Below, piece after piece: positions 17,471 through 63,465 of a stretch of 64,000 bases of DNA. The DNA comes from Candidatus Kaiserbacteria bacterium (GTDB lineage: Bacteria > Patescibacteriota > Minisyncoccia > Phycocordibacterales > UBA2100). The position numbers and the translations under genes are program-made. The notes under the pieces are model-generated. The model made no database searches. It saw only the letters and a program-made list of their open reading frames with translations, and was not told the origin of the DNA. The stretch is from contig JACRFI010000009.1 in the NCBI GenBank assembly GCA_016217965.1, forward strand, positions 3,144 through 67,143. The letters run 5' to 3'. The stretch's first letter is position 1, and each line of letters opens with the position of its first letter.

Positions 17471-17483
17471 GCGCACAATGGTA

Positions 17484-21860: not shown

Positions 21861-22655
21861 ATGGCACACTCTTTTTTCGACGGCGCGTACGTATCATATT
21901 GGAAAGAAAGGGTGGGAAACGCGGCCGACGGATCGAAAGTCTCTGATGAGAGCGTCGTTTCTTTCTTTCTTCAGAAACTGCCACTTGCAAAAAATAGCAG
22001 CGTTCTCGACCTCGGATGCGGGCACGGAAGGCTCTTTCCACTCCTCCATGAGAAAAGCGACCATATCGAAGGCGCTGATGTGACCGATGAAGCTGTAGCT
22101 GAATGCGCAAAGCTTCCGTACAAAAACGTGGTAAAAGGATCCGCAGAAAACACAACGCTCCCCTCAAACTATTTCGATGCGGTAGTTGCGTGGGCAACCT
22201 ACGACGTTGTGGAACAGGAAGCCGCGCTTGTTGAAGAAAATAGGATATTAAAAAAGGGTGGATACCTGCTTATTACCGGAAAAAACAAAGGATACGAGCC
22301 GACGGATGATCTGGCGTTCATCGCCGAGAGAAATGCGAAATTGAAAGATTTCCCGAACCACTTCACGGATGTATATGGACTCATCAAAGAGAGCTCGCTC
22401 TACGGATTCAGCGTGCGTGCCGGAGTTGGATTCCCGAGGCGAGGCGATTTCGGCAACCTGCAATTTTTCGACCTGCAGGCCGAAGAGCGCCCATGCTACG
22501 AATTCCTGCTGATACTTGAAAAAGAGGGAGCGCCCGCGCACGAGCGGCCCCTGATATGTTATGAATACAGCGACGTCGCAAAAGAGCAGGCGAAAGAGCA
22601 TCAGTTTGATGATGTACGCCAGTTCTTTCAGTGGCATGCACAGAACCATGGCTAA
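21861..22655 (+). CDS. Class I SAM-dependent methyltransferase
   Basis: LDLGCGHGR motif I and later MT motifs. Confidence 0.7.
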   Translation: MAHSFFDGAYVSYWKERVGNAADGSKVSDESVVSFFLQKLPLAKNSSVLDLGCGHGRLFPLLHEKSDHIEGADVTDEAVAECAKLPYKNVVKGSAENTTLPSNYFDAVVAWATYDVVEQEAALVEENRILKKGGYLLITGKNKGYEPTDDLAFIAERNAKLKDFPNHFTDVYGLIKESSLYGFSVRAGVGFPRRGDFGNLQFFDLQAEERPCYEFLLILEKEGAPAHERPLICYEYSDVAKEQAKEHQFDDVRQFFQWHAQNHG

Positions 22656-39971: not shown

Positions 39972-41024
39972 TCAAGCGCGTATGCCGTACATTGACCGCA
40001 ATTTCTTAAGTTGCGGCAAGAACTTCTTTGTGTTTTTTAAAAGGGATCCCCTCCCATCCGCAATACCGATAATGGCACGTGGTTTTCGTATGTCATCAAC
40101 AATTATTTCTCCGTATCCGCCGAGGAGACCGAGAGAAACGAGCCGTATGTTATGCCCTTTGATGGAACGGCGGCCAAGTGATTTTCCATAGTGTGCAGCC
40201 GTTTCGAGCAATGCAGAGAAGTTGTGTTTCTGGACCATTGATACGTCGATGCGATACACCACGTACTGCCCCCCTTTCGTTACGTCGCTTCGAAAACATC
40301 CCTTTCCGACATCGATGAGAATGGGCGCAGCGCTTCTATCCAATTCCTTGAGATGCTCACCTCCAATAATGCCGCGCGAATCCGCTGCTGCGATAACTGC
40401 GTTTGCCCCCTTACAGGCGTCTTTGATGCTTTTCGCTGCGCTGATTGGGGAAATTGTGTGTTCCGATTTAATGAGATTGAGGCCGGCTACAATAGTTTTT
40501 AACTTTTTCTGGTCGCGGCGATAGCCTCGCACATATGCACCGCGCTCCACGAGCTTCAACGCGATCTTGGCGCCGATGTTGCCAAACCCTATGACCGCGA
40601 TGTTCTTTCCCCCAACATCACCCGGTATCTGCCCCAAAAGAAAATCAATAGCCTCGACCGTGAGGTCATTGCCTTTGTACGTGACGATAGTCGATTTGCC
40701 CACTGCTTGCCGGACATGCCGCTCAATATTGCCGACATCATTTCTCCCATAATATAATTTCTCGACCTTCTTTTCTGAATCCAGAATGATGTAATCAACC
40801 TTGCCATCCACCATTCTCGCTATCCGGACTGCCGTAGAAACATCGCGGACGATAACCCCGCCATATACAAGCGTGTGTGTTTCCCGTAGCGGCGTCTCGT
40901 AATATCTGCCGCGCTCGAAGAGCCCGGAGGTGTTGCCTATCACAAATCCAGTTGGCCGCCTTCCTGCCCGCGCCTTCACATTTTTTACTATTCTCTCTAC
41001 CTTTTTCTGCATACCAGGCTGCAC
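39972..41024 (-). CDS. NAD(P)-binding Rossmann-fold oxidoreductase, function unknown
   Basis: GxGxxG motif IAVIGFGNIGAKIALKL. No further family assignment possible. Confidence 0.45.
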   Translation of the reverse strand: MQPGMQKKVERIVKNVKARAGRRPTGFVIGNTSGLFERGRYYETPLRETHTLVYGGVIVRDVSTAVRIARMVDGKVDYIILDSEKKVEKLYYGRNDVGNIERHVRQAVGKSTIVTYKGNDLTVEAIDFLLGQIPGDVGGKNIAVIGFGNIGAKIALKLVERGAYVRGYRRDQKKLKTIVAGLNLIKSEHTISPISAAKSIKDACKGANAVIAAADSRGIIGGEHLKELDRSAAPILIDVGKGCFRSDVTKGGQYVVYRIDVSMVQKHNFSALLETAAHYGKSLGRRSIKGHNIRLVSLGLLGGYGEIIVDDIRKPRAIIGIADGRGSLLKNTKKFLPQLKKLRSMYGIRA

Positions 41025-44562: not shown

Positions 44563-45375
44563 TTATTTCTTAGCCAGCGCACAGAGCGCGAGGCCTGCGC
44601 CGGAAGCGTCCTCCGTCTCCGATACATCAGCTAGTTCTTTGGGAGATGAGACACGAGTCCAGCCCTCCGGCGTGTTCTTGAAAAAGAGTTCTTCTGCGAC
44701 ACTGAAGCGCGCGTCCCCCACAAGCTCATTCCAACTCTTCTCCTCGTATTCCCACTCAGAAAAATAAAATCCGAGGCTGTCTTTCATGATTATTGGCCCA
44801 CCCTTTCCCATCGGGACCGTGATGAGCGCCTTTCCGCCCTTCCTCAGCGCTACATGGAAATTGTTCAGCACCTTTCTATTCACTTCCGTGTCACGAGATG
44901 TGTGCACGTCCTCCTTCTTCCGAGGCCTTTCGAACGCGCTTCCCTCTACACTCGTCGAGGGCGCATCGTATCCAATGTGCTCTATGGTTGATATGCACGT
45001 CACGACATCATACTTCTCGTTGGGCAGCTGCATCGAACGTATATCTCCTATCATGATGGGAACCGAAAGAATATCTTCTAACCATTCAGTCGGATACCGA
45101 GATTGAACGCTCTCCGGCTTGATAATGTCCGCAGCTTCGAGCATTACGCCATATTTCTTTTTCGCCTCAAGCAGCATGCCAAGACAGTCTTTGCTCCCGA
45201 GGCTGATGCCAATATCAAGGAGTGTGTCTCCCTTTTTTATGTGAGACGCTATCCAAGGAACTTCGATAGAACGTGACGTCCATCCTTTTCCTCGGAAGCC
45301 AGATGATTCAAACTTTCTCTTCCCACCCAATATCTCCTTTGCCTCTTCAAGGCTCGCTGTTTCTTCTGGATTCAT
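44563..45375 (-). CDS. Putative methyltransferase-like protein (divergent class I MT fold)
   Basis: LLDIGISLGS, D-x-x-x-x-T-C-I-S-T-I-E-H. Start placed at the internal Met so the gene does not overlap the conserved hairpin repeat. Confidence 0.4.
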   Translation of the reverse strand: MNPEETASLEEAKEILGGKRKFESSGFRGKGWTSRSIEVPWIASHIKKGDTLLDIGISLGSKDCLGMLLEAKKKYGVMLEAADIIKPESVQSRYPTEWLEDILSVPIMIGDIRSMQLPNEKYDVVTCISTIEHIGYDAPSTSVEGSAFERPRKKEDVHTSRDTEVNRKVLNNFHVALRKGGKALITVPMGKGGPIIMKDSLGFYFSEWEYEEKSWNELVGDARFSVAEELFFKNTPEGWTRVSSPKELADVSETEDASGAGLALCALAKK

Positions 45376-45379
45376 CGCG

Positions 45380-45422
45380 GAAGTATACCCCCACACCTTT
45401 TAGAATAAAAGGTGTGGGGGTA
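45380..45422. repeat. 43-bp hairpin repeat (copy 2 of 2), identical to 13335-13377
   Basis: GAAGTATACCCCCACACCTTTTAGAATAAAAGGTGTGGGGGTA. Confidence 0.85.
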
Positions 45423-49640: not shown

Positions 49641-50750
49641 TCAAGCCAAAGATGCGAGTATCTTTTTTGCCCGCCCTTCCCATGAATATTGAAGGACTTT
49701 CTCGTAGGCACGTGCGGCTCGAGCGCCCGCACTTCGGTCAGAAAGCGCGGTTTCGATAGCGCGCGTGAGATCTGTGGGATCGTCGGCGCGAAAAAAGAAC
49801 GCTTCTTCATCAGAAAGAATTTCGCGCATGCTCGGCAGATCCGAGACAACTATCGGTATGCGCGATGCCATGTAGGTGAAGAGCTTGAGAGGAGACGTGT
49901 AACGCTTGGATATTTCCTCGCTGCCTGAATTGGGAAGAACAAGGACGTCTGCCGCAGCCTGGTTATCAGCTATCTCTCGATACGGCCTGAAGCCCACAAA
50001 CATGACCTGCGGATGGTGTTTCTTTAGGACGGAAATCTCTTCTGGCCCATTACCTATTGCAACAATTTGGACATCTCGGAGTAATTCTGCTGCTTTGAAG
50101 AGAGTATCTGTTCCCTTCCACGCATCTATGCGGCCAATGTACAACGCGATCTTTTTTCCCGGCGGGAGCTGAAGCCGTTCGCGAGCCGCATCTTTTTGCA
50201 CGACTCTCCGAAACATGGAAAGGTCGACGGCATCTGGCGCCACGATAATTTTGCCTGCATCAAGCCCGAGCGCAACGAGATCATCTTTAAGGCCATTGGT
50301 AATGGCAACAATGCGGGACGCACGCATGAGAGCTCTCACGAAAAGACGTTTCCACCCGTAGATGTGGTGCACTTCGATAATGAGCCTGTTCCTTCGCGGA
50401 GAAAATGCGAAGAGAAGCGGGAAATCGCGAAAGTAGAGCACGTCACCCTCCGATGCGATGCGGGCAAATTTTAGATTGAGAATGAACGCAAGCGTGTCGA
50501 GCCACATGATGAGCGTTGGAAACACCTCCGACCTGCTTCCAATGTCGGGAATCTTGAGAGTCCGTATAGTGAAATTCTTTTTTACGCCGTAGTACGCGAA
50601 TGGATCGGTATCTAAAAATATGCGCTTTTGTGGCACAACAAGCTGCACGTCGTGCCCAAGAGAGGCGAAAGCGCCGCACATGCTCATTATCTGGACGCCG
50701 TGCGCTTTCTCGGTGGGAATCCTAGCATTGGAAATGTATCGCACTCTCAT
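49641..50750 (-). CDS. GT4 glycosyltransferase
   Basis: GT-B fold and C-terminal E-x7-E region. Confidence 0.75.
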   Translation of the reverse strand: MRVRYISNARIPTEKAHGVQIMSMCGAFASLGHDVQLVVPQKRIFLDTDPFAYYGVKKNFTIRTLKIPDIGSRSEVFPTLIMWLDTLAFILNLKFARIASEGDVLYFRDFPLLFAFSPRRNRLIIEVHHIYGWKRLFVRALMRASRIVAITNGLKDDLVALGLDAGKIIVAPDAVDLSMFRRVVQKDAARERLQLPPGKKIALYIGRIDAWKGTDTLFKAAELLRDVQIVAIGNGPEEISVLKKHHPQVMFVGFRPYREIADNQAAADVLVLPNSGSEEISKRYTSPLKLFTYMASRIPIVVSDLPSMREILSDEEAFFFRADDPTDLTRAIETALSDRSAGARAARAYEKVLQYSWEGRAKKILASLA

Positions 50751-51886
50751 ACCCTATGTTCATTCCGAATGAGATGCAGCAGCGCCTCTGCACTTTTTCT
50801 CCATGAAAAATCACGAGCTCGAGCAAGCCCTTTTGCGGCAATGCGCTCGCGTAAGGCAAAATCATTGACGAGCTGTCTCATGCGGGATTGTATCGCATCG
50901 ACATCTAACGGATCAGTTAAAACTGCAGCACCGCCTGCTATCTCCGGCATACATGAGATGTTTGATGTGAGAACAGGCGTACCGCATTGCATAGCCTCCA
51001 CGATAGGAAGGCCGAACCCCTCGACAAGGGAAGGGAACACGAGCATCTCTGCACAATTATAGAGCGCTGGCATATCTTCGTTCGCAACATACTTCTCTAC
51101 GTGCACGCTGCCCTCCGGCGCCTGGCGAATTTTCTCTTCGACCTCTCTTGAGTAGTCCGCGGCATGCGCGCCACCTATGCATACGAGGGTGTGTGGCACG
51201 CCTTCCTTCCTTAACCCGATAAATGCCTCCACAATGCGCGTGTTATTTTTGTGCGGGTCGAACCTCGCAACTGAGAGAATATAGGGTGGGCGAATGCCGT
51301 ACGTTTTCAGGAGTCTCTCCCGTGCAACGATGCGCTCTTCTTCTGAATACCGCCGGTATGCTTTTTCGGCTGCATTATAAATCGTGTGCACTTTCGAAGG
51401 AGGAAGTGCGTAGTACGAAATGATCCATTTTTTGGCATCCTCTGATACGGCTATCGCGGAAGTGAAGAAATATTGCCCAACAAAGCGAAGGAAATACTCA
51501 AACGCAAGATTCACGAGCGATCGAGGTGAACGGTACACTTCGCTCCGGGACGCATCATGGATAAATACGACTTTCTTCTTTGCGCTCAGCATCCAAAAGA
51601 GCGGATAGACAACACGATTAAAAATTACGGCATCGTATGTCTCCCGATGCGTAAGGAAAAAAAATGCATAGGAGAGCAAGGTCGAGGCGAAACGCTTAAT
51701 GATGACCGTCCGAGCTTTCTCGCACAGGGGACTATTACATTTCCCTTCCGGCCGCAGCAATGAAAGGTCTACGTCATCCCGGATTGCGAGTTCTTCTGCG
51801 ATCTTTTGAATAACGAGCGCGGTCCCCTTCCCGCCACGAGCGAAATCATCGCCGAAAAATGCGATGCGAAGTTTACTGCTTTGCAT
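50747..51886 (-). CDS. GT4 glycosyltransferase
   Basis: FPSLVEGFGLPIVEAMQCGTPVL. Start set at the internal ATG 51886 (MQSSKLRIAFFG). Confidence 0.8.
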   Translation of the reverse strand: MQSSKLRIAFFGDDFARGGKGTALVIQKIAEELAIRDDVDLSLLRPEGKCNSPLCEKARTVIIKRFASTLLSYAFFFLTHRETYDAVIFNRVVYPLFWMLSAKKKVVFIHDASRSEVYRSPRSLVNLAFEYFLRFVGQYFFTSAIAVSEDAKKWIISYYALPPSKVHTIYNAAEKAYRRYSEEERIVARERLLKTYGIRPPYILSVARFDPHKNNTRIVEAFIGLRKEGVPHTLVCIGGAHAADYSREVEEKIRQAPEGSVHVEKYVANEDMPALYNCAEMLVFPSLVEGFGLPIVEAMQCGTPVLTSNISCMPEIAGGAAVLTDPLDVDAIQSRMRQLVNDFALRERIAAKGLARARDFSWRKSAEALLHLIRNEHRV

Positions 51887-53042
51887 GGGTGAAAATATCC
51901 TTGATGGCGTGAATGACATCCGAGACATCGTCGTCAGTAAGCTTTGCAGAAAATGGGATAGAAACGGTACGGTCACCGATCCATTCCGCATTCGGCAGAT
52001 CGCCTTCTTTGTGCCCAAGCAATTTCCGATAATACGGCTGCAAGTGAAGTGCGCGGAAATGAACACCCGTGCCGATGTTGCGCTTTGTCATTCCGTCCAG
52101 GAATTCGTCCCTCGTTATTCCAGCCTTCTTAGTGTCAATGATGACAGTGAAAAGATGGTACGCATGGCGCTCATGCTCCCGGATAGGAGCAGGGAGTATA
52201 AGCGGCAAACCGGCAAGCTCTCTCATGTAGCGCTGCCACAGTTCTTCTCGGCGTTCCCTGTGCACTTCGATCCGAGCAAGCTGGTGAAAGCCAAGAGATG
52301 CCTGCAGGTCAGTCATGTTGTACTTGTAACCGGCTTCGACGACATCGTAATGCTTGTACCCTTCTTCGCCGTACCTCTTCCACGCATCTGCACTAAGGCC
52401 ATGCAACGACAGTACGCGCATGTTCTGTGCATACGCATCGTTTTCCGTCGTCGCCATTCCACCCTCTGCTGTGACAAGATTCTTCGTCACATAAAAACTG
52501 AAGCACCCTATGTCTCCTATCGTGCCAGCCTTCCTCCCTTTATATTCGGTTTCTATCGCGTGGGCGGCGTCCTCAATGACTTTCAGATCATGTCTCTTTG
52601 CGATCTTCAGTATCTCATCCATCTCGCACGGCCGCCCTGCCATATGGACTACGACAATGGCTTTCGTCTTTTGCGTTATTCTCCGCTCAATATCTTCAGG
52701 CAAAATGTTCTGAGTCTCTCTGTCACAATCTGCAAAGACAGGGCGCGCACCGCAGTGCACAACAGTGTTGGCTGTCGCAGCAAAGGTCATCGAAGGCACG
52801 ATAATCTCATCTCCCTCACTCACGCCGATTGCCCGCAGGGCAAGATGCAGAGCGGCGGTACACGAAGAAAGCGCTATCGCATGTTTGGTTCCAGTATGGG
52901 CCTTGAACGCGTCCTCAAACTTGTGCGTTTTCGGCCCTGTGCCGATCCAACCGCTCTTCAGGGTAGCCACAACCTCATCGATCTCCGGCTGTTCGATGAG
53001 AGGGGACCCAAAGACGAGAAAATCCTTCCGCATTAGTGACAC
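51873..53042 (-). CDS. DegT/DnrJ/EryC1/StrS-family aminotransferase (ArnB/WecE-like)
   Basis: SSCTAALHLAL and ...FYVTKNLVTAEGG. Confidence 0.85.
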   Translation of the reverse strand: MSLMRKDFLVFGSPLIEQPEIDEVVATLKSGWIGTGPKTHKFEDAFKAHTGTKHAIALSSCTAALHLALRAIGVSEGDEIIVPSMTFAATANTVVHCGARPVFADCDRETQNILPEDIERRITQKTKAIVVVHMAGRPCEMDEILKIAKRHDLKVIEDAAHAIETEYKGRKAGTIGDIGCFSFYVTKNLVTAEGGMATTENDAYAQNMRVLSLHGLSADAWKRYGEEGYKHYDVVEAGYKYNMTDLQASLGFHQLARIEVHRERREELWQRYMRELAGLPLILPAPIREHERHAYHLFTVIIDTKKAGITRDEFLDGMTKRNIGTGVHFRALHLQPYYRKLLGHKEGDLPNAEWIGDRTVSIPFSAKLTDDDVSDVIHAIKDIFTHAKQ

Positions 53043-53075: not shown

Positions 53076-54737
53076 CTATAGAGCATAAATGATTATCGTC
53101 GGGCCAAAGTAACGCTCATCAAAGAATTCAAGAAAAGAGTTCGTGAACGAACTGTCAGCAATGGACATCAAGACTCCCCTGCCCTCGAAACGTTGCAACT
53201 CTTTCGCGCCTTTAGTGAGACGGGAGAACGCCTCGGCAGTCGACGTTGCTTCAGTGGCGTATTCCGGAGCGAATATAAGATGCGTATATCCATTATTCTT
53301 TGCATACGCCGAAATATCGCGGATGAACACGCTGTCTTTCTTCATCGAAAACAGATAATTAAGAACGTGTGGCACGTCTTTGCGGTCGAGCACGACATCG
53401 GCGCCATCGACTTGCCTCACAACATTCGAATCGACAGCGCGAAGTTCCTCTACCGCATCCGCTGTCGTCGGCAATCTCATATGCGCGACATAGACAAGGA
53501 CTTTGTCAGAAGCGTCAAGATTCAGCAGCGCCCACTCGCGCGCCATGTCCCGCGTATCGCTCTCATATGCCAAGTATTCCACTCTGGCTGCGATTACAAG
53601 CGGGACGAGCAACAACAAAATGAGAGCAAAACGCGCCCAAGTATTCCACCAACGATCGACAACATAGCCGCCCGCGAGTGCATAGAATGGAACGAGGGCG
53701 AGCGCAAACCGCGGGTCGAACCGGAATACAATGTAAAAAACGGCAGTGTACGCGAGAAACCACCCAAATAGGAGAAATCCAATAGAGCGCCGCTCTTTCA
53801 GAAGAAGTGCAACGCCGATAAGAAAAAAGCCAATAAGAATTGGTTCCGAGTAAACGCTCATCGAGAGCATGGTCCACGGGCTTTCAAGAAATGCTGCAAG
53901 AGACTTGTCATTCAACAGAGTTATTGCACCAAAAAAAGCGTTGCCGTTCTTGTAGAGAAGAAATGGTATCGCCGCGAGCGCCACAAAAATGGCGCTACAC
54001 TGTGCGATGAGAGGAATATCCGTTACAACATCTCTCCACTTTTCCTTGTCGAAAATAACGTAGTAAAGCGCCATAAGCACCGCCGAGAGTATTGAGAGAG
54101 TCGAAAAACCCATGCCAATGCCAGCGATGAGCGACGCATAAAGATATCTCCTCTTTTTGGGAAGATCTCGCGATAGCGTGTAAAGCACTAACACAAATAC
54201 AAATGACGACGGCATCCAGTGCCTCCCGACCATAGAAAGCGCCTGATGTAGAATACTGGTCGCAACAAGATATGCGGAAACAAATGCCGCCACGGGAGAG
54301 TGGAACAGAGACTGCGCGACCCGATACACGAGATACACCATCAAGATCCCAAGGAGAATGTTGAGGCACCGTGCAGCAATAAAAAAAGGCGAGAGGTCCG
54401 TAAGAAGCGTTGCTTCAAAGAGCTCTCGCGAACCATCCCACGCAAGATACTTAACGCCGAGGATCAGGACAAACGGAATAAGGAGGACGTACGAGAGGTA
54501 CAAAGGGTACAAAAGGATGGACGAGAACGCCTCGGGTTGAAGTGCAGGAATAAGCGTCTGCGTCTCTATCATTTTGAGGGCGACGACGGTAAATGGAGGT
54601 TCATCGGAAACAAGAGTGAGCGGTAGGCCAAAACCGATACCAAAGATGCGGAGAAATAATGTAAGGAGGAGAACGGAGGCGAGCGCCCATTCGTTCCGCA
54701 CTATGTGTTTAATTCTTTCTTTGATCATACAGTTCAA
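53076..54737 (-). CDS. GT-C membrane glycosyltransferase of the ArnT/PMT (GT39/83-like) family
   Basis: 553 aa, about 12 TM helices. N-terminal ...LRIFGIGFGLP...DEPPF loop typical of ArnT/PMT_2. Confidence 0.6.
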   Translation of the reverse strand: MNCMIKERIKHIVRNEWALASVLLLTLFLRIFGIGFGLPLTLVSDEPPFTVVALKMIETQTLIPALQPEAFSSILLYPLYLSYVLLIPFVLILGVKYLAWDGSRELFEATLLTDLSPFFIAARCLNILLGILMVYLVYRVAQSLFHSPVAAFVSAYLVATSILHQALSMVGRHWMPSSFVFVLVLYTLSRDLPKKRRYLYASLIAGIGMGFSTLSILSAVLMALYYVIFDKEKWRDVVTDIPLIAQCSAIFVALAAIPFLLYKNGNAFFGAITLLNDKSLAAFLESPWTMLSMSVYSEPILIGFFLIGVALLLKERRSIGFLLFGWFLAYTAVFYIVFRFDPRFALALVPFYALAGGYVVDRWWNTWARFALILLLLVPLVIAARVEYLAYESDTRDMAREWALLNLDASDKVLVYVAHMRLPTTADAVEELRAVDSNVVRQVDGADVVLDRKDVPHVLNYLFSMKKDSVFIRDISAYAKNNGYTHLIFAPEYATEATSTAEAFSRLTKGAKELQRFEGRGVLMSIADSSFTNSFLEFFDERYFGPTIIIYAL

Positions 54738-55821
54738 GGATAAGCGCCTCGAATTCTTTCATATATTCTGGCATCGAGTATTTTTTAACTCTCTCGCGCG
54801 CCGCATTCCCCAACTGTTCACGGCGCGAAGCATCAGCAAGAAGCGCCGTTATGTGGCTCGCAAGCCCGTGCGGGTCGCGAGGCTCTGCAATGAGGCCTGT
54901 CACGCCGTGTCCAACAAACAAGGGGATGTCTCCCACATTCGTCGATACTATTGCACGCCCTTCCCTCATCGCTTCCATTATCGCAATGGGAAGATCAGTC
55001 GAAACGGCAGGATCAACGTAGACATCCGCAAGCGGCAACACATCCTGTATATCGAGCTGTCCAGGAAAAAGCACCCTATCCTCGATACGAAGGCGCGCCG
55101 CTTCCTCTCGCAACTCCTGTTGGAGAGGTCCCCATCCCACTACCAGAAACGTCGTGTGTGGATGCTGCTGTAGCACCTGCTGCGCAGCTTTCACAAGATA
55201 CGTGTGCCCTTTCTCTTCAACAAGGCGGCTCACCGTGAGAACGATGCGATCCGATCCTGGTATACCGAGCTCCCGCCGAAGTTCTGAGTTGGGGCGGCTC
55301 ACTTTCTCTTTCAGAAGTGGAGGGATATGGAGCGTGAGGAATTTCTCAATTGGAATTTTTTCCTGCCCCGCGGTAAAGTCGCGCGCAACATTAGAATCGA
55401 CGATGATGCGCGCAGTCTTCTTTGAAAGAAGCTTGTCCATGAATATCTGCCACTGACGTTTATTCGGGTATATATTGTGTTCGTAACTGATGATGCACGG
55501 GACACCAGCGAGAATGGCAGCGCCTCGAACCAGCAAATTCGCTGAGAAAAGATGTGTGACAACAACATCGAATCGCCCACGCCGCACATAGGAAACAAGG
55601 CGGAAAAACGCGACGATGTCCCACGTTCGGCGGAAGCGGAAACAGCGATCGATCCGCGCACTGCCCGCCAATGTCTCTTTCTGCTCATCGAAAAGCGTGA
55701 TAAAGAAAGGCTCGAAGCGCACCCGGTCCAGGGCTTCGAGCTGCCGGACGAGAAGTTTCTCCGCGCCGCCAACGCTGCATCGCGGTATCGCGAAGAGGAC
55801 CTTAACCCTCTTTGCTGTCAT
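54709..55821 (-). CDS. GT4 glycosyltransferase
   Basis: GT-B fold and EX7E motif. Confidence 0.75.
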   Translation of the reverse strand: MTAKRVKVLFAIPRCSVGGAEKLLVRQLEALDRVRFEPFFITLFDEQKETLAGSARIDRCFRFRRTWDIVAFFRLVSYVRRGRFDVVVTHLFSANLLVRGAAILAGVPCIISYEHNIYPNKRQWQIFMDKLLSKKTARIIVDSNVARDFTAGQEKIPIEKFLTLHIPPLLKEKVSRPNSELRRELGIPGSDRIVLTVSRLVEEKGHTYLVKAAQQVLQQHPHTTFLVVGWGPLQQELREEAARLRIEDRVLFPGQLDIQDVLPLADVYVDPAVSTDLPIAIMEAMREGRAIVSTNVGDIPLFVGHGVTGLIAEPRDPHGLASHITALLADASRREQLGNAARERVKKYSMPEYMKEFEALILELYDQRKN

Positions 55822-56690
55822 AGGTATGTTTCCTTTGCGATCTGTATCAAATACTCCCCATAGCCACTTTTTCGCAGTGGCTCGGCGAGCGAGTACAATT
55901 TCTCCCTCGAGATGTATCCCATGCGGTATGCCACTTCTTCAATGCTTCCGACAAGAAATCCTTGCCGCTTCTCGATGACCTGCACAAATTGCGCGGCCTC
56001 CATGAGGGCAGCAAATGTGCCGGTGTCGAGCCAGATCGTGCCGCGGTCAAGCTCTAAGACCTTCAACTTCCCCTGGCTCAGGTAGTGCTTATTTATATCC
56101 GTCACTTCGTATTCCCCACGGCCACCTCGTTTGAGGCTTTTTGCTATAGCAACCACAGAATTGTCGTAAAAATATAAGCCGGGAACAGCATATTTAGACC
56201 GAGGCAGTGCTGGTTTTTCCTCTATTGATATGGCCGTATTGTTTTTGTCGAATTCAATCACACCGTACGCAGATGGGTCTGACACATGGTGCGCAAAAAC
56301 GATGCCACCTTTTGGATCTTTGCATTTCTCGAACAACTTGCGGAGCCCCGAGCTAAAAAAGAAGTTGTCGCCTAAAATAAGTGCAACGTCATCCTCGCCA
56401 ACAAACTTCTCCCCGATGACAAACGCATGCGCCACTCCCTCTGGTTTCTCCTGGATCGCGTATGAGAATGAGCATCCCACCTGAGAACCATCTCCCAGGA
56501 GGCGTTCGAATGCTGGTGCATCTTCGGGCGTTGTGATCACCAAAATGTCCCTTATCCCAGCAAGCATCAATGTCGAGAGCGGATAGTAGACCATCGGCTT
56601 GTTGTAAAGAGGTATCAGCTGCTTACTCGCAGCCTTTGTGATTGGGTACAGACGCGTGCCAGAGCCACCCGCGAGTATGATGCCTTTCAT
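55818..56690 (-). CDS. rmlA: Glucose-1-phosphate thymidylyltransferase (RmlA)
   Basis: MKGIILAGGSGTRLYPIT, and the YGVIEFD region. Confidence 0.92.
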   Translation of the reverse strand: MKGIILAGGSGTRLYPITKAASKQLIPLYNKPMVYYPLSTLMLAGIRDILVITTPEDAPAFERLLGDGSQVGCSFSYAIQEKPEGVAHAFVIGEKFVGEDDVALILGDNFFFSSGLRKLFEKCKDPKGGIVFAHHVSDPSAYGVIEFDKNNTAISIEEKPALPRSKYAVPGLYFYDNSVVAIAKSLKRGGRGEYEVTDINKHYLSQGKLKVLELDRGTIWLDTGTFAALMEAAQFVQVIEKRQGFLVGSIEEVAYRMGYISREKLYSLAEPLRKSGYGEYLIQIAKETYL

Positions 56691-56711: not shown

Positions 56712-57359
56712 CTACTTCCTTGCCACCGCGATAAGTTTCGCCCGCATCCATTCGAACGGGAGCGTTCGGGGAGATTCCTGAAAGTACGAATATTGTACAG
56801 ACGCCCAAGGAACTGTTCCGAGAAGTTTCTTAAGCGAACGCGAGCTGTAAAGCCATCTTGCAGTATTATCGTATTTAAAGCGGCGGCCCTTGAAGCGCGC
56901 TGCGAGATAAGAGAACCACACATAGAGTTTGTTAGGCGTAAGTATCATGAGGCTTCCGCCGGGCTTTAATATCCGGAATGCTTCACCTATGCCAGATATT
57001 CCATCTTCGAAGTGCGCGATGACATGCAAGCAAAATATTTTGTCGAACGAATCGTCTTCAAATGGCATAGAGGTCATGGAACAACGAACGAAGCTCCCTC
57101 GAATATACTTGCGAGCCTCGTCGGTCACGTCACTGGAAACCATATCAACACTCGGCTCAAGAGCTGTGAGCAGCTGCTCCAGGCGCCCCTTTCCACATCC
57201 TATGTCCAGAATCCTGTCCCCTTTTTTCGGGGACATGAGACGCAAAATGAGCGCGTGTTCTTCTTGTAAGCGATCGTGCAACTCGTGACTATCGCGTTTC
57301 AGGACTTCAAAATACGCTGGACCGAATTGCTCATTCTGCCCCCCCAACTTCTCGCTCAT
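56712..57359 (-). CDS. Class I SAM-dependent methyltransferase
   Basis: ILDIGCGKGR, Methyltransf_11-like. Confidence 0.7.
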   Translation of the reverse strand: MSEKLGGQNEQFGPAYFEVLKRDSHELHDRLQEEHALILRLMSPKKGDRILDIGCGKGRLEQLLTALEPSVDMVSSDVTDEARKYIRGSFVRCSMTSMPFEDDSFDKIFCLHVIAHFEDGISGIGEAFRILKPGGSLMILTPNKLYVWFSYLAARFKGRRFKYDNTARWLYSSRSLKKLLGTVPWASVQYSYFQESPRTLPFEWMRAKLIAVARK

Positions 57360-58363
57360 ACAATATGCGCGTTTGCGTGTACACGCACCTGTGGATTAGC
57401 CTTGAACCATTCCACGGTTTCCGACAACTTCTCTTCGAGCGTACACTTTGGTTTCCAGCCAAAACCTCGAAGCTTTGAGGAATCAACTGCGTACTTCTGA
57501 TCATGGGCAGGCCTATCCTCAACATGCGTGGTAAGAGACAGAGGCTTCCCGAGTATTTTGAGAATATTCTCAGCAATATATTTGTTCGAATACTCCTTCT
57601 GCTGCGATACGTTATACACATCACCAACGGTGCCCTTTTCAAGGACCGCGAGAATCGCTTCCGAGTGGTCATCAACATACAGCCAGTCGCGCATATTTTC
57701 TCCCGTGCCATACAGAGGAAGAGGCTCATTATTCAAAGCGCACATCGTAAAGAAAGGAATGAGCTTTTCAGGGAACTGCCGAGGCCCGTAATTATTGACA
57801 GAGTGAGTGACAATGACCGGCAGCTTGTGTGTTTTTGCATACGAACGAACCAAGAGATCTCCTGCAGCCTTTGACGCCGCATAGGGCGAATTCGGGCGAA
57901 ATGGCGAATCTTCTGTGAAGCGCTCCTTCGAATCGAGCGGGAGATCTCCCCACACCTCGTCTGTCGATATATGCACCATTCGGCTGACATGCGGGCTCTG
58001 ACGAAGCGCCTCGAGAAGCGAGTAGACGCCAACAACATTCGTGTGTATGAAAGGGGCAGCGCCTTCGTGTATTGACCTGTCGACATGCGTCTCAGCCGCA
58101 AAATTCACTACCGCATCTGCATCGCGCATCTGCTCTAACATAAGCGGCGTATCAGAGATATCCCCTTTTACGAACACGTATCTCGCCTCATCAACTCCAT
58201 CAAGGTTACGAGGATTCCCCGCGTATGTAAGCGCGTCCACATTGGCAACACGCACATCAGGAAAACGTTCAAGGAGCATCCGGATGAAATTAGAGCCCAT
58301 GAACCCACAGCCGCCCGTGACGACGATCTTTTTATTCCGGAGAGTGAATGTTCCTTGGTCCAT
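57356..58363 (-). CDS. rmlB: dTDP-glucose 4,6-dehydratase (RmlB)
   Basis: VVTGGCGFMGSN, HISTDEVWG, YAASKAAGD. Confidence 0.92.
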   Translation of the reverse strand: MDQGTFTLRNKKIVVTGGCGFMGSNFIRMLLERFPDVRVANVDALTYAGNPRNLDGVDEARYVFVKGDISDTPLMLEQMRDADAVVNFAAETHVDRSIHEGAAPFIHTNVVGVYSLLEALRQSPHVSRMVHISTDEVWGDLPLDSKERFTEDSPFRPNSPYAASKAAGDLLVRSYAKTHKLPVIVTHSVNNYGPRQFPEKLIPFFTMCALNNEPLPLYGTGENMRDWLYVDDHSEAILAVLEKGTVGDVYNVSQQKEYSNKYIAENILKILGKPLSLTTHVEDRPAHDQKYAVDSSKLRGFGWKPKCTLEEKLSETVEWFKANPQVRVHANAHIV

Positions 58364-58396: not shown

Positions 58397-59185
58397 CTAT
58401 ATCGGTTTCTTTTCCAAAACGACCATAACGGTACGCAGGATCGCGCTGTGATGAATCCCAAAAGCCGCAAGAAGCCATTTGGCATAGTGTCGAAATCCTG
58501 AACCTGCGTCTTCATACAGAACGCGAAAACCTGCTTTGCGCGCCATCCGCTTCATCTTCCAGAAACTGATGAAGTGCAAGTTAATTTCCTCAATGGTATT
58601 TTGATGCCACGCCGCGCGCAGCAACACTGCAGCAAGCGATCGAGGCATGTAGCTAAGGCCCCAAACACCAGTGTGTGTCTCTTTTGGTGCAAGCCGGTTC
58701 GGAAACGCTAGGTAGAACCTTCCTCCCTCCTTCAGGACACGCGCAGCCTCGCGGAGCATGAGACCAGGATCCGAAACATGTTCCAGAACGCTTACAGAGA
58801 ATGCGTAATCAAACGATCCGCTTGCGTGGGGAAAAATGCCGCCGTCGTAGAGGCGAAGATCGATCTTGGCGCGCGCATTCTTAGCATTCTGGACCGCAAT
58901 CCGCCAAAGGACCTCATTAACCTCAAGCCCAGAAGCTAGGGCACCCGCCTCTCCGAACGCAACCGCATACAAGCCATTTCCGAAACCGATGTCCAGAACT
59001 GATTTACCGCCTACCGGTCCGGCACGTTTTTCGAAATCATTCACAACATTCTTCGCAACACCCCCCTTCTTTTCCCAATCCCGTACTAATTTCTCATGCT
59101 CGTAGACATCCGTGTATTCCGTACATTCAGCCAAGTACTGTTCAGCCTGTTTCCGAACCTGCTCTGCAGAAATTCCTTGATTCAT
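58397..59185 (-). CDS. Class I SAM-dependent methyltransferase
   Basis: VLDIGFGNGL, ...VLEHV. Confidence 0.7.
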   Translation of the reverse strand: MNQGISAEQVRKQAEQYLAECTEYTDVYEHEKLVRDWEKKGGVAKNVVNDFEKRAGPVGGKSVLDIGFGNGLYAVAFGEAGALASGLEVNEVLWRIAVQNAKNARAKIDLRLYDGGIFPHASGSFDYAFSVSVLEHVSDPGLMLREAARVLKEGGRFYLAFPNRLAPKETHTGVWGLSYMPRSLAAVLLRAAWHQNTIEEINLHFISFWKMKRMARKAGFRVLYEDAGSGFRHYAKWLLAAFGIHHSAILRTVMVVLEKKPI

Positions 59186-60201
59186 AGGTTCATTTCCTTC
59201 GCGAGAGAGTGAACAAGTGACGGGAGCGAATGGGTGTCCGCCATATGGGATAGTTGCTCAATCAACACTCGACGCTCCCCATCTCTAAGCGATAGCAGTC
59301 CCTTAAGCTTCTCTGCGAGGGTCTCTGCAGAGCCGTCGAAGCTAAGCCGTGCGTCGGCACTCTCCGCAAAATCCTTGCTCGCTGCAAGAACGAGGCACCC
59401 GCACGCTGCCGCCTCAAAGATGGTTTTGTTATACATCCCGCTCTCTGACAGGTCGACGAATATCTCATATTCGCTAAAAACGCTTGGGGCCGCAGCGTGC
59501 GGGACGCCTTCAAAAAATCGCGCGTTTTCAAGCGAGTAGCTATCGGCCTGTACTGATGCCTTGTACGCCGCATCGCGCGCCAAGGCAGAGCCAAAGAACG
59601 TAACCGAACATGGAATATTCTGCGCATGCAACATGCGAACAGCGGAAACTAACACATCAGGCCTCTTCGATGGCGCAAATCTCCCAAAAAAAAGTAGAGA
59701 ACCTGGGACACGTCTGATTTCCCGGAGAGGCTGGAATAGCGCAGTATCGATACCGATGGGCATCAACACTGTCTTTTTATATTTTGCAGTGTATGAGAAT
59801 TTCGACGTGCAAAATACTTTCTCGCAAAAAAACGCCGCGATGTCGGTTGCGAGACTGCCTTCATAGTGGTTTCGCCAGAGATACACTTTTTTTCCAAGAA
59901 GCTTCCATAGCCATCCGGCTAAGAGCGCATATTCCTCGTTCATATGCACAAACACGGCATCGTATTCACGTCGCAATTTCCATACGTGCAGTAAAAAACG
60001 GATGGAGTAGCGTAGCCGCCCTTGCGAGCCACGTTCCTTGCCAAGCGAGTGCACCTGGCTTTTCAGATCATACTGCCCTACTTGGAGGGCAATGATATTC
60101 ATAGTGCCGAATGTTTTTTCGAATGCCTTAAGCCACCCGACAAAAAAACCGAGCACTAAATCTTCGGTATCCACTGACTGAGTGCAAACCAGGAGCTTCA
60201 T
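59182..60201 (-). CDS. GT4-like (GT-B) glycosyltransferase
   Basis: C-terminal EYEIFVDLSESGMYNKTIFEAAACGCLV. ATGA overlap with the upstream gene. Confidence 0.6.
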   Translation of the reverse strand: MKLLVCTQSVDTEDLVLGFFVGWLKAFEKTFGTMNIIALQVGQYDLKSQVHSLGKERGSQGRLRYSIRFLLHVWKLRREYDAVFVHMNEEYALLAGWLWKLLGKKVYLWRNHYEGSLATDIAAFFCEKVFCTSKFSYTAKYKKTVLMPIGIDTALFQPLREIRRVPGSLLFFGRFAPSKRPDVLVSAVRMLHAQNIPCSVTFFGSALARDAAYKASVQADSYSLENARFFEGVPHAAAPSVFSEYEIFVDLSESGMYNKTIFEAAACGCLVLAASKDFAESADARLSFDGSAETLAEKLKGLLSLRDGERRVLIEQLSHMADTHSLPSLVHSLAKEMNL

Positions 60202-60202
60202 G

Positions 60203-62164
60203 TCACGATAGAAGGAGATCGCGCGCCTCTTCCGGCTTGTCGCCATATACCCCCTTCACAAGGTCCATATCTTTTTCACTGGAGAGAAGAAGGTCGAGAT
60301 TTTTCGCAGCAGCGGCATCGAGGAATTTTGCGCCGTATTCGTCTTGGAGAAGATCGGCATACAAGCGGCGAGTAACTTCAAAATCCTTGATGAAGCAATG
60401 TCCGCCTGCGCCGCGGCCCGGCTTGCCACCATGGCCGCTCTGATGCACAGGATCAAGGTGCGACCGGCCGATGCGCGGGTCGCCAGCAAGCGCGTCGCGG
60501 ATTATTTCGTAGCGTGCGCCACTTTTTTTAGCGAGATCATGCAGAAGATTGATGTACACAACTTTCACATACAGCCAGCTGTTGCCCGCATATTTAATGA
60601 GTTCGGCTTCAAGCGCGCTGCACACGAGCTCAAATGGCGCCGACGGTAATATCGCGAGCACCTGTTTTGCTCGTCTTTGCATTTCCTCAGTATCTTCCGG
60701 AATGCCGGCTATATTCCTATCGGGATGGCTGGCATCGTATGCGGCAGTTGCTTCGCGCAAGAATTCTGGCGAGTGCATAACAAAAATATCCGGATTTTCT
60801 TTCTGAAGTTGTTCAGTCGTGCCAGGAAGTAGCGTCGATTTTATGACCGCAGTCTTTCCTTTGCCGACAAGCCGAAGTGCACTTTTTACTATCGAAACGT
60901 CAAAACCTTCCGGCGTCGTAGGCGTAGGAACAGCGATGAACACAATATCGCAGCCCTGTATCTTGTCTTTGTTCTGCCGATACGGCTCTTCGAGCGCATA
61001 CCGAACGACCGTGAATCCGCGCCGCTCAAAATCATCTGCATAATTCTTGCCAATCCACCCTTGTCCCACATATCCGATAGTCGGCCTGTCTTCTTTTTTT
61101 GCAGGCGCGAAAGGCGCAGTGCCAAGCGCCGACCCAATTTCCGCGCGCCACATATCCCGATACTCAGTCTCCGTCGGAAGTGGAAATGATAATTTCCCTT
61201 TCTTTCCCTCGGAAAGTACCGCCGCGACGGTACGTGGAAATTCGGTTTTGTCAGCTATCAACGCGCCAGCTTCCTTCGCCACACCAACATCATAGGAAAC
61301 AACTGCGCACCCCGCGGCAAGCGCCTCGACGATGACCATCCCGTATCCTTCGAAATCCGAGGTAACAAGAAGTACATCTGCCGATTTGTAATACGAATTC
61401 GGATTGTGAGAACCAGCAAAAACAACCCATTGTGTGAGGCCAAGTTTCTCCACAAGCAATTCAAGTTTTTTTCTCTCACTCCCGTCTCCCAGGATAACGA
61501 GGCCGGTTTCCGCCCGTACCTTCTGTACCTCTGGAAGTGCACGAATCGCTGCGGCAACATTCTTCTCCGGCTCGAGCCGTGCGACAACAAGCGCAATTTT
61601 CTTGAACTTCGGGTACTGATGCTTAAGATCGGCTGGTTGCGCTGCTTTCAAGGCATCCAAGTCAACAAACACCGGAAGCACTGATACGCGAGTTTTAATG
61701 CCACGCTTTTCCATCGAGAGTTTTATTTTTTCTGAAACAACGCGGATAGCATCTGCGCGAGAAATAAGAAAACGTGCGAGAAGAACGCGAAGCCTGTTCG
61801 CAAACGAATGCCGCCTGAAATTGGCATCAAACAGATCGGTATGCACCTGGAGATGCAACCTCGCCCCTCGTACACGAGCAATGATGTATCCGAGAAGCCC
61901 TATGAGGAACGGGTCCTGCGCAGAGACAACATCGGGACGCGGGATCCGAACGGCTCGCGGAAGCATCCTCAGAGTTCCTCTGATCTGTCCCGGCCCAAAG
62001 CCGCGCATCGTGGCGTTCCCCGCGAGGTTCACTATTTGGTTCGGCCCATGGGGCACGAACACATCAAGCCGCTCCACAGTGGATGCTTGCATGCGCATTC
62101 GGCGTGCAACCGCGCTGTCTTCATTGAAGACGTTCCAATCAGTGGAAATGCTAAGGACCCGCAT
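60203..62164 (-). CDS. Fusion: N-terminal GT4 glycosyltransferase + C-terminal UDP-glucose/nucleotide-sugar 6-dehydrogenase-like NAD-binding and catalytic domains (no C-terminal UDP-binding domain)
   Basis: GT4 EX7E SDFEGYGMVIVEALAAGCAVVS. Then IGYVGQGWIG, IVFIAVPTP, SPEFLREATA and the catalytic-Cys motif GGHCFIKD. A7 tract exactly at the inter-domain linker (61094-61100). Confidence 0.65.
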   Translation of the reverse strand: MRVLSISTDWNVFNEDSAVARRMRMQASTVERLDVFVPHGPNQIVNLAGNATMRGFGPGQIRGTLRMLPRAVRIPRPDVVSAQDPFLIGLLGYIIARVRGARLHLQVHTDLFDANFRRHSFANRLRVLLARFLISRADAIRVVSEKIKLSMEKRGIKTRVSVLPVFVDLDALKAAQPADLKHQYPKFKKIALVVARLEPEKNVAAAIRALPEVQKVRAETGLVILGDGSERKKLELLVEKLGLTQWVVFAGSHNPNSYYKSADVLLVTSDFEGYGMVIVEALAAGCAVVSYDVGVAKEAGALIADKTEFPRTVAAVLSEGKKGKLSFPLPTETEYRDMWRAEIGSALGTAPFAPAKKEDRPTIGYVGQGWIGKNYADDFERRGFTVVRYALEEPYRQNKDKIQGCDIVFIAVPTPTTPEGFDVSIVKSALRLVGKGKTAVIKSTLLPGTTEQLQKENPDIFVMHSPEFLREATAAYDASHPDRNIAGIPEDTEEMQRRAKQVLAILPSAPFELVCSALEAELIKYAGNSWLYVKVVYINLLHDLAKKSGARYEIIRDALAGDPRIGRSHLDPVHQSGHGGKPGRGAGGHCFIKDFEVTRRLYADLLQDEYGAKFLDAAAAKNLDLLLSSEKDMDLVKGVYGDKPEEARDLLLS

Positions 62165-62200: not shown

Positions 62201-62338
62201 TCAACCCCGTTAGAAATAGCCCGCCCAAGCCCTCTAGGGCGCGCTTGCCCCGTTAGAAGCTTTGCGGTTAGAAGAATGTGTCCAGCGTTGGTTTGGCTTC
62301 TAACGGGGCTTGCGCGCGGGCGCGATTTCTAACGGGGT
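62201..62338. repeat. Nested palindrome built from four copies of CCCCGTTAGAA (two direct, two inverted)
   Basis: Outer arms 62201-62215 / 62325-62338 (14 bp), inner arms 62245-62257 / 62297-62309 (13 bp). The right outer arm overlaps the stop of the GT4 gene at 62338. Confidence 0.75.
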
Positions 62339-63465
62339 CAATGCGCCGTAAATTTCCTGAAGAGCGCCATATGTTCTTGCAACACGGCGTCCCAACTATG
62401 CTCGAACCTGACTTTTCGGCACTTCGCAACGAATTCCCCATACCGTTTCTCGTCGGCAAGCATTTCCAGCTTCGATGCAATATCCTCAACGGAGCGCGGA
62501 TCAAGCATCTCCGGCAACTGATCCTTGATAGGAAGAAAATTCTCCTTCGTCACGAGGACAGGTACGCCGAGCGCAAGTGCTTCAGTAACCTGATTGGGAG
62601 AAATATCACTCCAGCTCGGCAAGACAAGAGCGCGGCAATTTTTTATTCTCTCGCATAACTCTTCCTGCCGCATCGTGGGAAGCATGGTCACTTCTCCAAC
62701 TATTCTCAGCTCTTGCATTGCATTGCGAATGCGGTGCTCTTCAGGGCCGCTACCGATGAGAACGAGGCGGTATGAGTCCGGCAGTTGCGCCTTCGCAAAT
62801 GCCCACACCAAGGACGTCACATTTTTCATAGCAACGAAACGCCCCGCGAATAGTATCTCCTCGCTCGCCTTCCCTCTGCTCACGGTAGATATTTTTGGCA
62901 AAGGATTATAGATGACAGAGGTCTTTCTGGGATCAAGACTGTAATATTGGTGATACATCTTCTGCTGCGCATCACTATTGAATACGACATGAGCCCGCCT
63001 GAGTACGAAACGGATGACTCGGTATAACATTCGGAAATTTCTATCTAACTTCTTTTCGTAAAAATCCGTAAGGGGCATCGGGTCGTTCGTGTTCTCCAAA
63101 TAACGCTCCCAGATATAATCGCCGCCAACACGGATGATAATGGGTGTTGGTTTCAGCATTGCCGCTAGCACAACGGGAAACCCCGCGGCAATCCAGTCCA
63201 GGCTATAGATCAGATCCGCATTTCCTATCTCTTTCCGAACCGCTCGAAAAAACGTGAGGTAATTTGCTATGCGGCTTCCCTTTCGAACGACGCGAACAAG
63301 TTTGAACGAATACTTGGAATCAAAATCGTATCTATCTTTATGCGAGTACGTAATGACAGTTACATCATGCCCCGCACCGACAAGCATCGATGCGATCTTC
63401 GGCGTGTAAATAGCGGGACCTCCTGCTTCGGGTTCGAAGATGCCTGTCGTTATCAGAATGTGCAT
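62338..63465 (-). CDS. GT4 glycosyltransferase
   Basis: GT-B fold, EX7E (SWSDISPNQVTEALALGVPVLV). Confidence 0.8.
   Translation of the reverse strand: MHILITTGIFEPEAGGPAIYTPKIASMLVGAGHDVTVITYSHKDRYDFDSKYSFKLVRVVRKGSRIANYLTFFRAVRKEIGNADLIYSLDWIAAGFPVVLAAMLKPTPIIIRVGGDYIWERYLENTNDPMPLTDFYEKKLDRNFRMLYRVIRFVLRRAHVVFNSDAQQKMYHQYYSLDPRKTSVIYNPLPKISTVSRGKASEEILFAGRFVAMKNVTSLVWAFAKAQLPDSYRLVLIGSGPEEHRIRNAMQELRIVGEVTMLPTMRQEELCERIKNCRALVLPSWSDISPNQVTEALALGVPVLVTKENFLPIKDQLPEMLDPRSVEDIASKLEMLADEKRYGEFVAKCRKVRFEHSWDAVLQEHMALFRKFTAH

Follow-up and report, generated by a model that had tools for sequence, protein, structure and literature searches.

UDP-glucose dehydrogenases (UGDHs) and their relatives are textbook three-domain proteins, in which the UDP is held by a C-terminal Rossmann domain. 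WbpO/WbpP and TviB/TviC are dehydrogenase/epimerase pairs of N-acetylhexosaminuronic acid pathways. The reaction of human UGDH turns a primary alcohol into a carboxylate in two NAD+-dependent steps, through a covalent thiohemiacetal and a thioester (PMC3265891), and in canonical enzymes the C-terminal Rossmann domain binds the UDP moiety of the substrate (PMC3184952). Here, we describe a gene of a Candidatus Kaiserbacteria bacterium, located in a 64,000-nucleotide stretch (hereafter the window) of contig JACRFI010000009.1, in which a retaining glycosyltransferase of family 4 (GT4) is fused to a short UGDH-family dehydrogenase that keeps the catalytic residues and lacks the UDP-binding domain.

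Architecture of the fusion protein

The fusion gene (60203..62164, minus strand, as for all its parts below) is a single open reading frame (ORF) of 653 amino acids (aa) plus stop, as already delineated in a first-pass annotation of the window made by a model from the letters alone, and its product is 100% identical to a 'glycosyltransferase' of a Candidatus Kaiserbacteria metagenome-assembled genome (MAG) retrieved by protein search (P0001). The same annotation had described a complete GT4 domain followed by the N-terminal and central domains of a UGDH with the catalytic Cys, but without the canonical UDP-binding C-terminal domain, and it had proposed domain profiles as a check; the Pfam results agree with this description throughout. 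Indeed, the GT4 module of GT-B fold (61130..62164, aa 1-345; Pfam and AlphaFold model) matches Glyco_transf_4 over aa 55-170 (50.5 bits) and Glycos_transf_1 over aa 183-298 (96.5 bits), both above the curated cut-offs, together with Glyco_trans_4_4 and Glyco_trans_1_4. The dehydrogenase module (60206..61081, aa 362-653) scores as a UGDH-family protein, with UDPG_MGDP_dh_N (PF03721) at aa 399-494 (64.3 bits against a cut-off of 27, profile positions 71-181 only) and the UDPG_MGDP_dh central domain (PF00984) at aa 519-621 (50.2 bits against 25.4). The UDP-binding domain PF03720 gave no Pfam match in the fusion protein at E <= 1, and only 59 residues remain between GGHCFIKD (aa 587-594) and the protein end. 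The TIGR03026 model was matched with 127.6 bits, under its cut-off of 189.8, at model positions 71-293 of 413. Between both modules lies a 17-residue linker, SALGTAPFAPAKKEDRP (61082..61132, aa 345-361), which includes a stretch of low predicted local distance difference test (pLDDT) values and is hypervariable among orthologues. The full-length AlphaFold model (mean pLDDT 90, predicted template modelling score (pTM) 0.58) has its sole low-confidence segment at aa 349-355 (pLDDT < 50), and the fusion is thus modelled as two well-folded domains joined by a flexible tether.

The GT4 half is an ordinary retaining GT4. Its EX7E motif (E272-GYGMVIV-E280; 61325..61351) has an invariant E280 and an E272 that is at least 90% conserved in the alignment of 112 orthologues, to which the invariant residues given below also refer. 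The N-terminal half of the AlphaFold model fits BshA, MshA and PimB' best (target-normalised TM-score of 0.64-0.69 for BshA and MshA); BshA is also the top NCBIfam match of the GT4 half (75 bits, far under cut-off), with no equivalog-level NCBIfam match, all equivalog scores being far under their cut-offs. While the GT-B fold and the EX7E motif are common to BshA, MshA, PimA/PimB' and TuaC, the C-terminal dehydrogenase added by the fusion is found in none of the solved GT4 enzymes.

The dehydrogenase half keeps the catalytic set of UGDHs, i.e., GxxGQGxIGK, AVPTP, KST(444)xxPGT, SPE(467)FLxE(471), ExExxK(524)YxxN(528) and GRGAGGHC(590)FIK(593)D(594), in which T444, E467, K524, N528, C590, K593 and D594 are invariant and aligned with the motifs of solved UGDHs. 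The translated dinucleotide-binding motif GYVGQGWIGK (61046..61075, aa 364-373) contains the invariant G364, G367, Q368, G369 and G372. SPEFLREATA (60743..60772, aa 465-474; P466, E467, F468 and L469 invariant) aligns with PEFLREG of solved UGDHs, placing E467 and E471 on the catalytic and substrate Glu, and EAELIKYAGN (60581..60610, aa 519-528; E521, K524, Y525 and N528 invariant) places K524 and N528 on the catalytic Lys and Asn. The catalytic loop GRGAGGHCFIKD (60383..60418, aa 583-594), which aligns with G-x-G-x-GG-S-C-F-P-K-D, carries the nucleophile C590 as well as K593 and D594, and R584, G585, A586, G587, G588, C590, I592, K593 and D594 are all invariant in it. In total, the residues of the UGDH mechanism (Cys, Lys, Asn, Asp, two Glu and Thr) are invariant or nearly so not only in the 112 orthologues but also in about 95 stand-alone members of the family. 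When the module was modelled alone (pLDDT 95.3, pTM 0.90), its top PDB fold matches were all UGDHs (TM-score (TMq) 0.69-0.77, 22-27% identity), none of these matched solved proteins having the two-domain architecture, and by sequence it is nearer to UDP-glucose dehydrogenases (E about 1e-19) than to N-acetylhexosamine (HexNAc) dehydrogenases (1e-5 to 1e-8).

Compared to Ugd, HasB, TuaD and AglM (PF03721 + PF00984 + PF03720), the module has in common the Rossmann NAD-binding domain, the long-helix central domain and the motifs KST..PGT, PEFLRE, E..K...N and GG.C..KD with the Cys nucleophile, but it departs from them beyond the missing PF03720 and the TIGR03026 score under cut-off. Its Rossmann domain is ~25 residues shorter (the Pfam match starting at profile position 71), and an invariant Arg584 stands where a small residue is usual. 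A remodelled loop, DPRIGRSHLDPVHQSGHGGKP (60419..60481, aa 562-582), brings a His/Gly-rich insertion ahead of the Cys loop in alignments with UGDHs of the PDB; its H574 is invariant, and the second fused subfamily has an insertion shorter by 7 residues. Finally, the protein ends in a family-specific conserved tail (60206..60382, aa 595-653), which is modelled as four helices, carries the signature KD.DL..GVYG and occupies the start of the would-be UDP-binding domain, with R599, Y602, D608, N622, L625, L626, K631, D632, Y640 and G641 invariant. Profile alignments to solved UGDHs stop at or soon after the Cys loop and extend no further into the tail than about 30 residues (profile position 269).

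The dehydrogenase module belongs to a large conserved stand-alone family of ~285 aa proteins, ~60% identical to the module. A search with aa 355-653 alone gave 7420 significant matches among the 8000 candidates scored; nearly all of the best 120 are 280-330 aa long, and 116 of the 119 listed homologues are stand-alone proteins (280-362 aa, 59-74% identical) with only PF03721 and PF00984. PF03720 is absent from all 119, as well as from the longer representatives tested among the top 150 representative matches. In the exhaustive representative search, 130 clusters (50% identity level) were found at E < 1e-30, mostly of 270-310 aa. Where the source of a stand-alone homologue is named, it is Taylor-, Falkow- or Kaiserbacteria or another member of Patescibacteria, and relatives occur in at least 574 GTDB species genomes (one genome per species), the best 80 of which are essentially all Patescibacteria, with one Kofleriaceae-titled contig of 72% GC as the clear exception. 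Since the short dehydrogenase is such a large and highly conserved stand-alone family, the form that the first-pass annotation called truncated is a native architecture. This two-domain form is not described in NCBIfam models, PDB entries or the searchable literature; literature searches on the candidate phyla radiation (CPR), Patescibacteria or Parcubacteria with UGDH or glucuronic acid found nothing, and those on truncated UGDH and on the Pfam-named fusions found nothing relevant. The chemistry is probably familiar; no description apparently exists so far of the architecture, of its phyletic spread or of the conserved fusion. For annotation, thousands of such proteins are named 'glycosyltransferase', 'hypothetical protein' or 'UDP-glucose 6-dehydrogenase', which leaves a distinct family unmarked.

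Note that taxon labels in record titles are untrustworthy for part of these loci. Indeed, for L015, L024, L046, L050, L057, L060, L069 and many 'uncultured Candidatus Saccharibacteria' loci, the third-party annotation (TPA) title disagrees with the content (GC of 34-49% where checked, and Paceibacteria-type neighbourhoods), and a few automated titles among the best 80 genomes read Gammaproteobacteria. The Kofleriaceae-titled MAG locus (L079:6001-6843, DASTLB010000019.1) encodes a short dehydrogenase that shares 60% identity with the window module. It lies on a 404-kb contig, of which a sampled 12.8-kb stretch has 72% GC, whereas the other loci have a median of 46%, and the usual neighbour families are absent nearby in this stretch. 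An apparent 1692-aa ORF at this locus is a high-GC artefact, the real dehydrogenase starting at MKPRIGFIGQGWI. This setting suggests that the short dehydrogenase also exists outside Patescibacteria, or that it was transferred.

Conservation of the fusion and the A7 tract in its linker

The fusion itself is genuine, old and conserved in a lineage of Patescibacteria related to Kaiserbacteria. Protein search found fused orthologues of full length (about 640-675 aa, 46-72% identical, with the same six Pfam families) in more than 110 clusters, and the fusion is present in 15 GTDB species-representative genomes. Conservation is strong in both modules, with a mean column identity of 63-64% in alignments of 28 and of 112 orthologues, while the ~17-residue linker varies freely in sequence and length. 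The first-pass annotation had also proposed a comparison of orthologous fusions with split gene pairs, and both occur: when 85 related loci were sorted by the position of a homologue of the window GT4 module, this homologue was fused to the dehydrogenase in 15, formed a separate ORF directly upstream on the same strand in 14, was represented by a GT4-like gene within 6 kb in 23, and was missing in 33. The gene order upstream GT4 - GT4 - dehydrogenase - downstream glycosyltransferase (GT) is common to fused and split loci, and the fusion is derived from this conserved operon. In trees of the dehydrogenase modules (crude, unbootstrapped neighbour-joining), the main fused group, made up of the fused loci from the 15 GTDB species plus four further fused proteins, forms a single clade, next to which stand a divergent second fused group (P0112-P0120), the split locus L032 and one reverse-order fusion; the remaining fusions are scattered over the tree. 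The split pair on a groundwater Patescibacteria contig lies immediately downstream of a diversity-generating-retroelement-like pair, in which a bAvd accessory protein accompanies an RVT_1 reverse transcriptase (L001:2909-4345 and L002:2183-3619).

An A7 tract (61094..61100, T7 on the plus strand) lies in the linker, as the first-pass annotation had pointed out, where it covers codons A355-K356-K357 of the peptide APAKKEDRP at the edge of the low-confidence segment aa 349-355. From this location, an assembly error or a phase-variable state had been put forward, in which slippage at the tract joins or separates two genes, and the split GT4 and dehydrogenase pairs of other lineages could be taken in the same sense. 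We consider this explanation highly improbable. Contrary to what had been claimed, the tract is not the only homopolymer of the gene, since two further A7 tracts are present in the dehydrogenase module (60523..60529, about aa 546) and in the GT4 module (61466..61472, about aa 231), together with an A6 run (61726..61731). Such runs are common: 30 A/T/C runs of at least 7 were counted in the window, with an expectation of about 0.9 per 1962 nt, and an A7 inside a Lys-Lys linker is therefore unremarkable, because about one run of this kind is expected per gene of this size. The same 653-aa protein with the same neighbours was recovered in an independent Logan assembly of run SRR12113407, an independent assembler thus yielding the identical sequence, and the A7 length agrees between the two assemblies. 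At the DNA level, the fusion is kept in 15 fused orthologous loci of the GTDB species-representative genomes, none of which has A7 in its hypervariable linker (A6 in 2 of the 15). The split loci also display true intergenic gaps, 12 of the 14 having a gap of 18-145 nt and an ATG of the dehydrogenase's own. A simulated -1 or +1 slip at the A7 tract lengthened or shortened the GT4 frame and left the dehydrogenase frame with upstream GTG or TTG codons only, without an ATG start.

Candidate functions of the fused modules

We favour, with moderate confidence, a bifunctional enzyme in which the retaining GT4 is tethered to a minimal nucleotide-sugar 6-dehydrogenase and transfers the uronic acid made by it. 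As we infer the substrate, the product and the hand-over to GT4, the dehydrogenase would act on a nucleotide-activated hexose or N-acetylhexosamine and oxidise its C6 hydroxyl to give a uronic acid, consuming two NAD+ and passing through a thiohemiacetal and then a thioester on Cys590, with the assistance of Thr444, Glu467, Glu471, Lys524, Asn528 and Asp594. Because this set of Cys, Lys, Asn, Asp, Glu and Thr residues is invariant, we argue for an active enzyme carrying out the UGDH reaction. Without the UDP-binding Rossmann domain, binding would need to rely on the retained central-domain loop, the His/Arg-rich insertion and the tail; the last two may stand in for the phosphate contacts of the missing domain. 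The tethered GT4, with the flanking glycosyltransferases, would then place the uronic acid into a cell-surface glycan. A comparison may be drawn with ArnA, a formyltransferase joined to a decarboxylase of the short-chain dehydrogenase/reductase (SDR) type: bifunctional nucleotide-sugar enzymes of this kind have in common with the fusion that consecutive steps around a uronic-acid nucleotide sugar would be carried on one chain, but the domains are unrelated, and the present fusion would join a producing enzyme to a transferase.

The neighbours of the short dehydrogenase were counted over 83 non-redundant loci, the cluster representatives being checked against Pfam. The largest neighbour cluster is GT4, found within 5 kb in 44 of the 83 loci and directly adjacent in 22, always upstream. 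It is followed by a WbpP/WbgU/GalE-like SDR 4-epimerase (30/83, adjacent in 11) and by the downstream GT (29/83, adjacent in 20), a homologue of the window downstream GT lying directly downstream of the dehydrogenase in 16 loci. The 4-epimerase is even fused to the short dehydrogenase in L031, with all catalytic motifs intact, in P0354 and, as a degenerate version, in P0277; the L031-type epimerase resembles WbpP (1sb8, E = 2e-56). Other fusions join the short dehydrogenase to GT2 or, in reverse order, to GT4. This recurrent adjacency to and fusion with nucleotide-sugar handlers (GT4, GT2 and the WbpP-type 4-epimerase) is the pattern expected for a producer of nucleoside diphosphate (NDP)-uronic acid serving its partners, and fused and split pairs point to a glycosyltransferase that probably uses the dehydrogenase product. 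The arrangement recalls WbpO-WbpP of Pseudomonas aeruginosa O6 and TviB-TviC of the Vi antigen, as the dehydrogenase adjoins, and in L031 fuses with, a WbpP/WbgU-type 4-epimerase. WbpO and TviB, however, are full-length three-domain enzymes, while the window module is nearer to UDP-glucose than to HexNAc dehydrogenases, and a WbpP-type epimerase was not found among the window ORFs scanned. No separately encoded C-terminal UDP-binding domain was present among the called neighbours, in which no sensitive profile search for one was made.

The missing UDP-binding domain also leads to the main alternative, an unlikely one, in which the substrate carries no nucleotide and C6 is oxidised after transfer, on the product of GT4, on a sugar carried by polyprenyl phosphate or on a small glycoside; the fusion protein would then transfer first and oxidise second. 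The position of the dehydrogenase C-terminal to GT4 is in keeping with this order, although both domain orders occur among the fusions. Likewise, GtrA, which is associated with polyprenyl-phosphate-sugar translocation, is found within 5 kb in 9 of the 83 loci and directly adjoins the dehydrogenase in 6, DPMS-like GT2 and PMT_2 (GT-C) genes are present in short-dehydrogenase clusters, and BshA and MshA, the closest GT4 structures, glycosylate small molecules. However, the 4-epimerase is a nucleotide-sugar enzyme, and its adjacency and fusion (30/83 loci) better fit a nucleotide-sugar product. In addition, Arg564 and the loop ahead of the catalytic Cys are retained, whose equivalents contact the substrate in canonical UGDHs, and to our knowledge no UGDH-family enzyme acts on non-nucleotide substrates.

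Still less probable, in our view, is an unrelated small-alcohol substrate or a non-catalytic role in NAD(H) binding or scaffolding. The Rossmann and helical layout does resemble dehydrogenases of the 6PGDH/HIBADH type, some sources annotate the protein in this way, and a weak NAD_binding_2 match was found. Housekeeping contexts exist as well: D-Ala-D-Ala ligase (Ddl) lies within 5 kb in 8 of the 83 loci (directly adjacent in 7, downstream) and UvrC in 5 (adjacent in 4), forming UvrC - dehydrogenase - Ddl arrangements, and there are odd fusions to Ddl, APS kinase and HTH. Nevertheless, the near-invariant residues of the UGDH mechanism argue against a non-catalytic role and for chemistry of the hexose-C6 type, and glycan-synthesis genes are the commonest neighbours.

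Several observations weigh against the bifunctional uronic-acid enzyme that we favour. Neither the PDB nor the literature gave us a precedent for a UGDH that works when the UDP-binding domain is missing, and the TIGR03026 score of the fusion protein stays under the curated cut-off. About 40% of the related loci have no GT4 homologue within 6 kb, and in eight loci the gene is set between UvrC and Ddl, so that the link to glycosyltransferases is not universal. Moreover, with a pTM of only 0.58, the full-length model gives no confident contact between the domains that would point to channelling. The first-pass annotation had left a choice between a uronic acid made and transferred by one polypeptide and a repurposed dehydrogenase-like part; the former is now the better supported candidate, with the absent UDP-binding domain as its substantial weakness.

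It was also considered whether the UDP-binding function that the dehydrogenase lacks is provided by GT4. This is unlikely as a general solution, since in about two thirds of the 83 related loci the dehydrogenase is stand-alone and has no adjacent GT4 homologue, and it is further disfavoured by the full-length model, in which the domains are not confidently packed (pTM 0.58). More broadly, it is doubtful that the short family works without a nucleotide handle, on the C6 of an attached or polyprenyl-phosphate sugar, or borrows the nucleotide site of a partner, for instance that of the fused GT4. If it did, uronic-acid formation by a UGDH-family enzyme would for the first time take place away from the pool of free nucleotide sugars, and this trait would be close to universal in a large section of Patescibacteria. 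A two-domain form with all catalytic residues and ~60% identity over hundreds of Patescibacteria species would mean that either the UDP-binding domain is dispensable, so that nucleotide sugars can be oxidised on a new minimal scaffold, or the family has turned to substrates of a new class. The family also gives a testable handle on the building of acidic surface glycans in uncultivated bacteria with reduced genomes.

Among other short-dehydrogenase proteins, odd architectures were observed in P0247, P0318, P0333 and P0111 (Ddl, APS kinase and N-terminal HTH_3 fusions, and a 606-aa tandem duplication).

The glycan island around the fusion gene

The fusion gene lies inside a minus-strand run of glycan genes, which are given here in window-coordinate order, i.e., in the reverse of transcription. 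Two GT4 genes (49641-50750 and 50747-52066) are followed by a DegT-type aminotransferase, a PMT_2 GT-C enzyme (53076-54737), a further GT4 (54709-55821), RmlA (55818-56690), a methyltransferase, RmlB (57356-58363; 412 bits, above cut-off) and a second methyltransferase, and then by the downstream GT-B glycosyltransferase (59182..60201), the fusion gene and the upstream GT4 (62338..63465; 375 aa, Pfam), which is the first gene of the conserved block GT4 - fused GT4 and dehydrogenase - GT. The mechanical ORF of the downstream GT (59182-60246) overlaps the fusion gene by 44 nt. Judging from the sequence, its translation more probably begins with the ATG at 60199-60201, separated by one base from the fusion stop codon, which gives a protein of 339 aa, and this TGAcATG arrangement suggests that the downstream GT is translationally coupled to the fusion gene.

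Beyond this run, nearly all of the window past SecA (2369-4903), from about 5869 to 64000, is a single glycan-biosynthesis island. It includes a Wzy_C-TPR protein, two C-methyltransferases, a UDP-GlcNAc 2-epimerase, a PseB-like dehydratase, heptose-pathway genes (HAD, SIS and GHMP kinase), GMD-like and Fcl-like SDRs, a CMP-sugar transferase, two DegT aminotransferases, two KpsS/C-like Capsule_synth proteins, an ABC exporter, RmlA, RmlB and at least 8 glycosyltransferases. Five ORFs of 277-607 aa in or beside the island (21-1550, 10803-12626, 15833-17548, 22561-24018 and 44563-45396) have no Pfam match at E <= 1e-5. A 350-aa dehydrogenase-like protein (39972-41024, minus strand), placed between a DegT aminotransferase and a NeuB fusion, displays a weak NAD-binding match of the 6PGDH type at aa 141-212 only and belongs to no NCBIfam family. 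The NeuB fusion, an 804-aa ORF (41026-43440, minus strand), is a second unusual fusion in the same island: an N-terminal FAD/NAD(P)-binding oxidoreductase region (Amino_oxidase, DAO and UDP-galactopyranose-mutase-like matches, aa 14-367) precedes a complete NeuB sialic/nonulosonic acid synthase with its SAF domain (aa 493-803).

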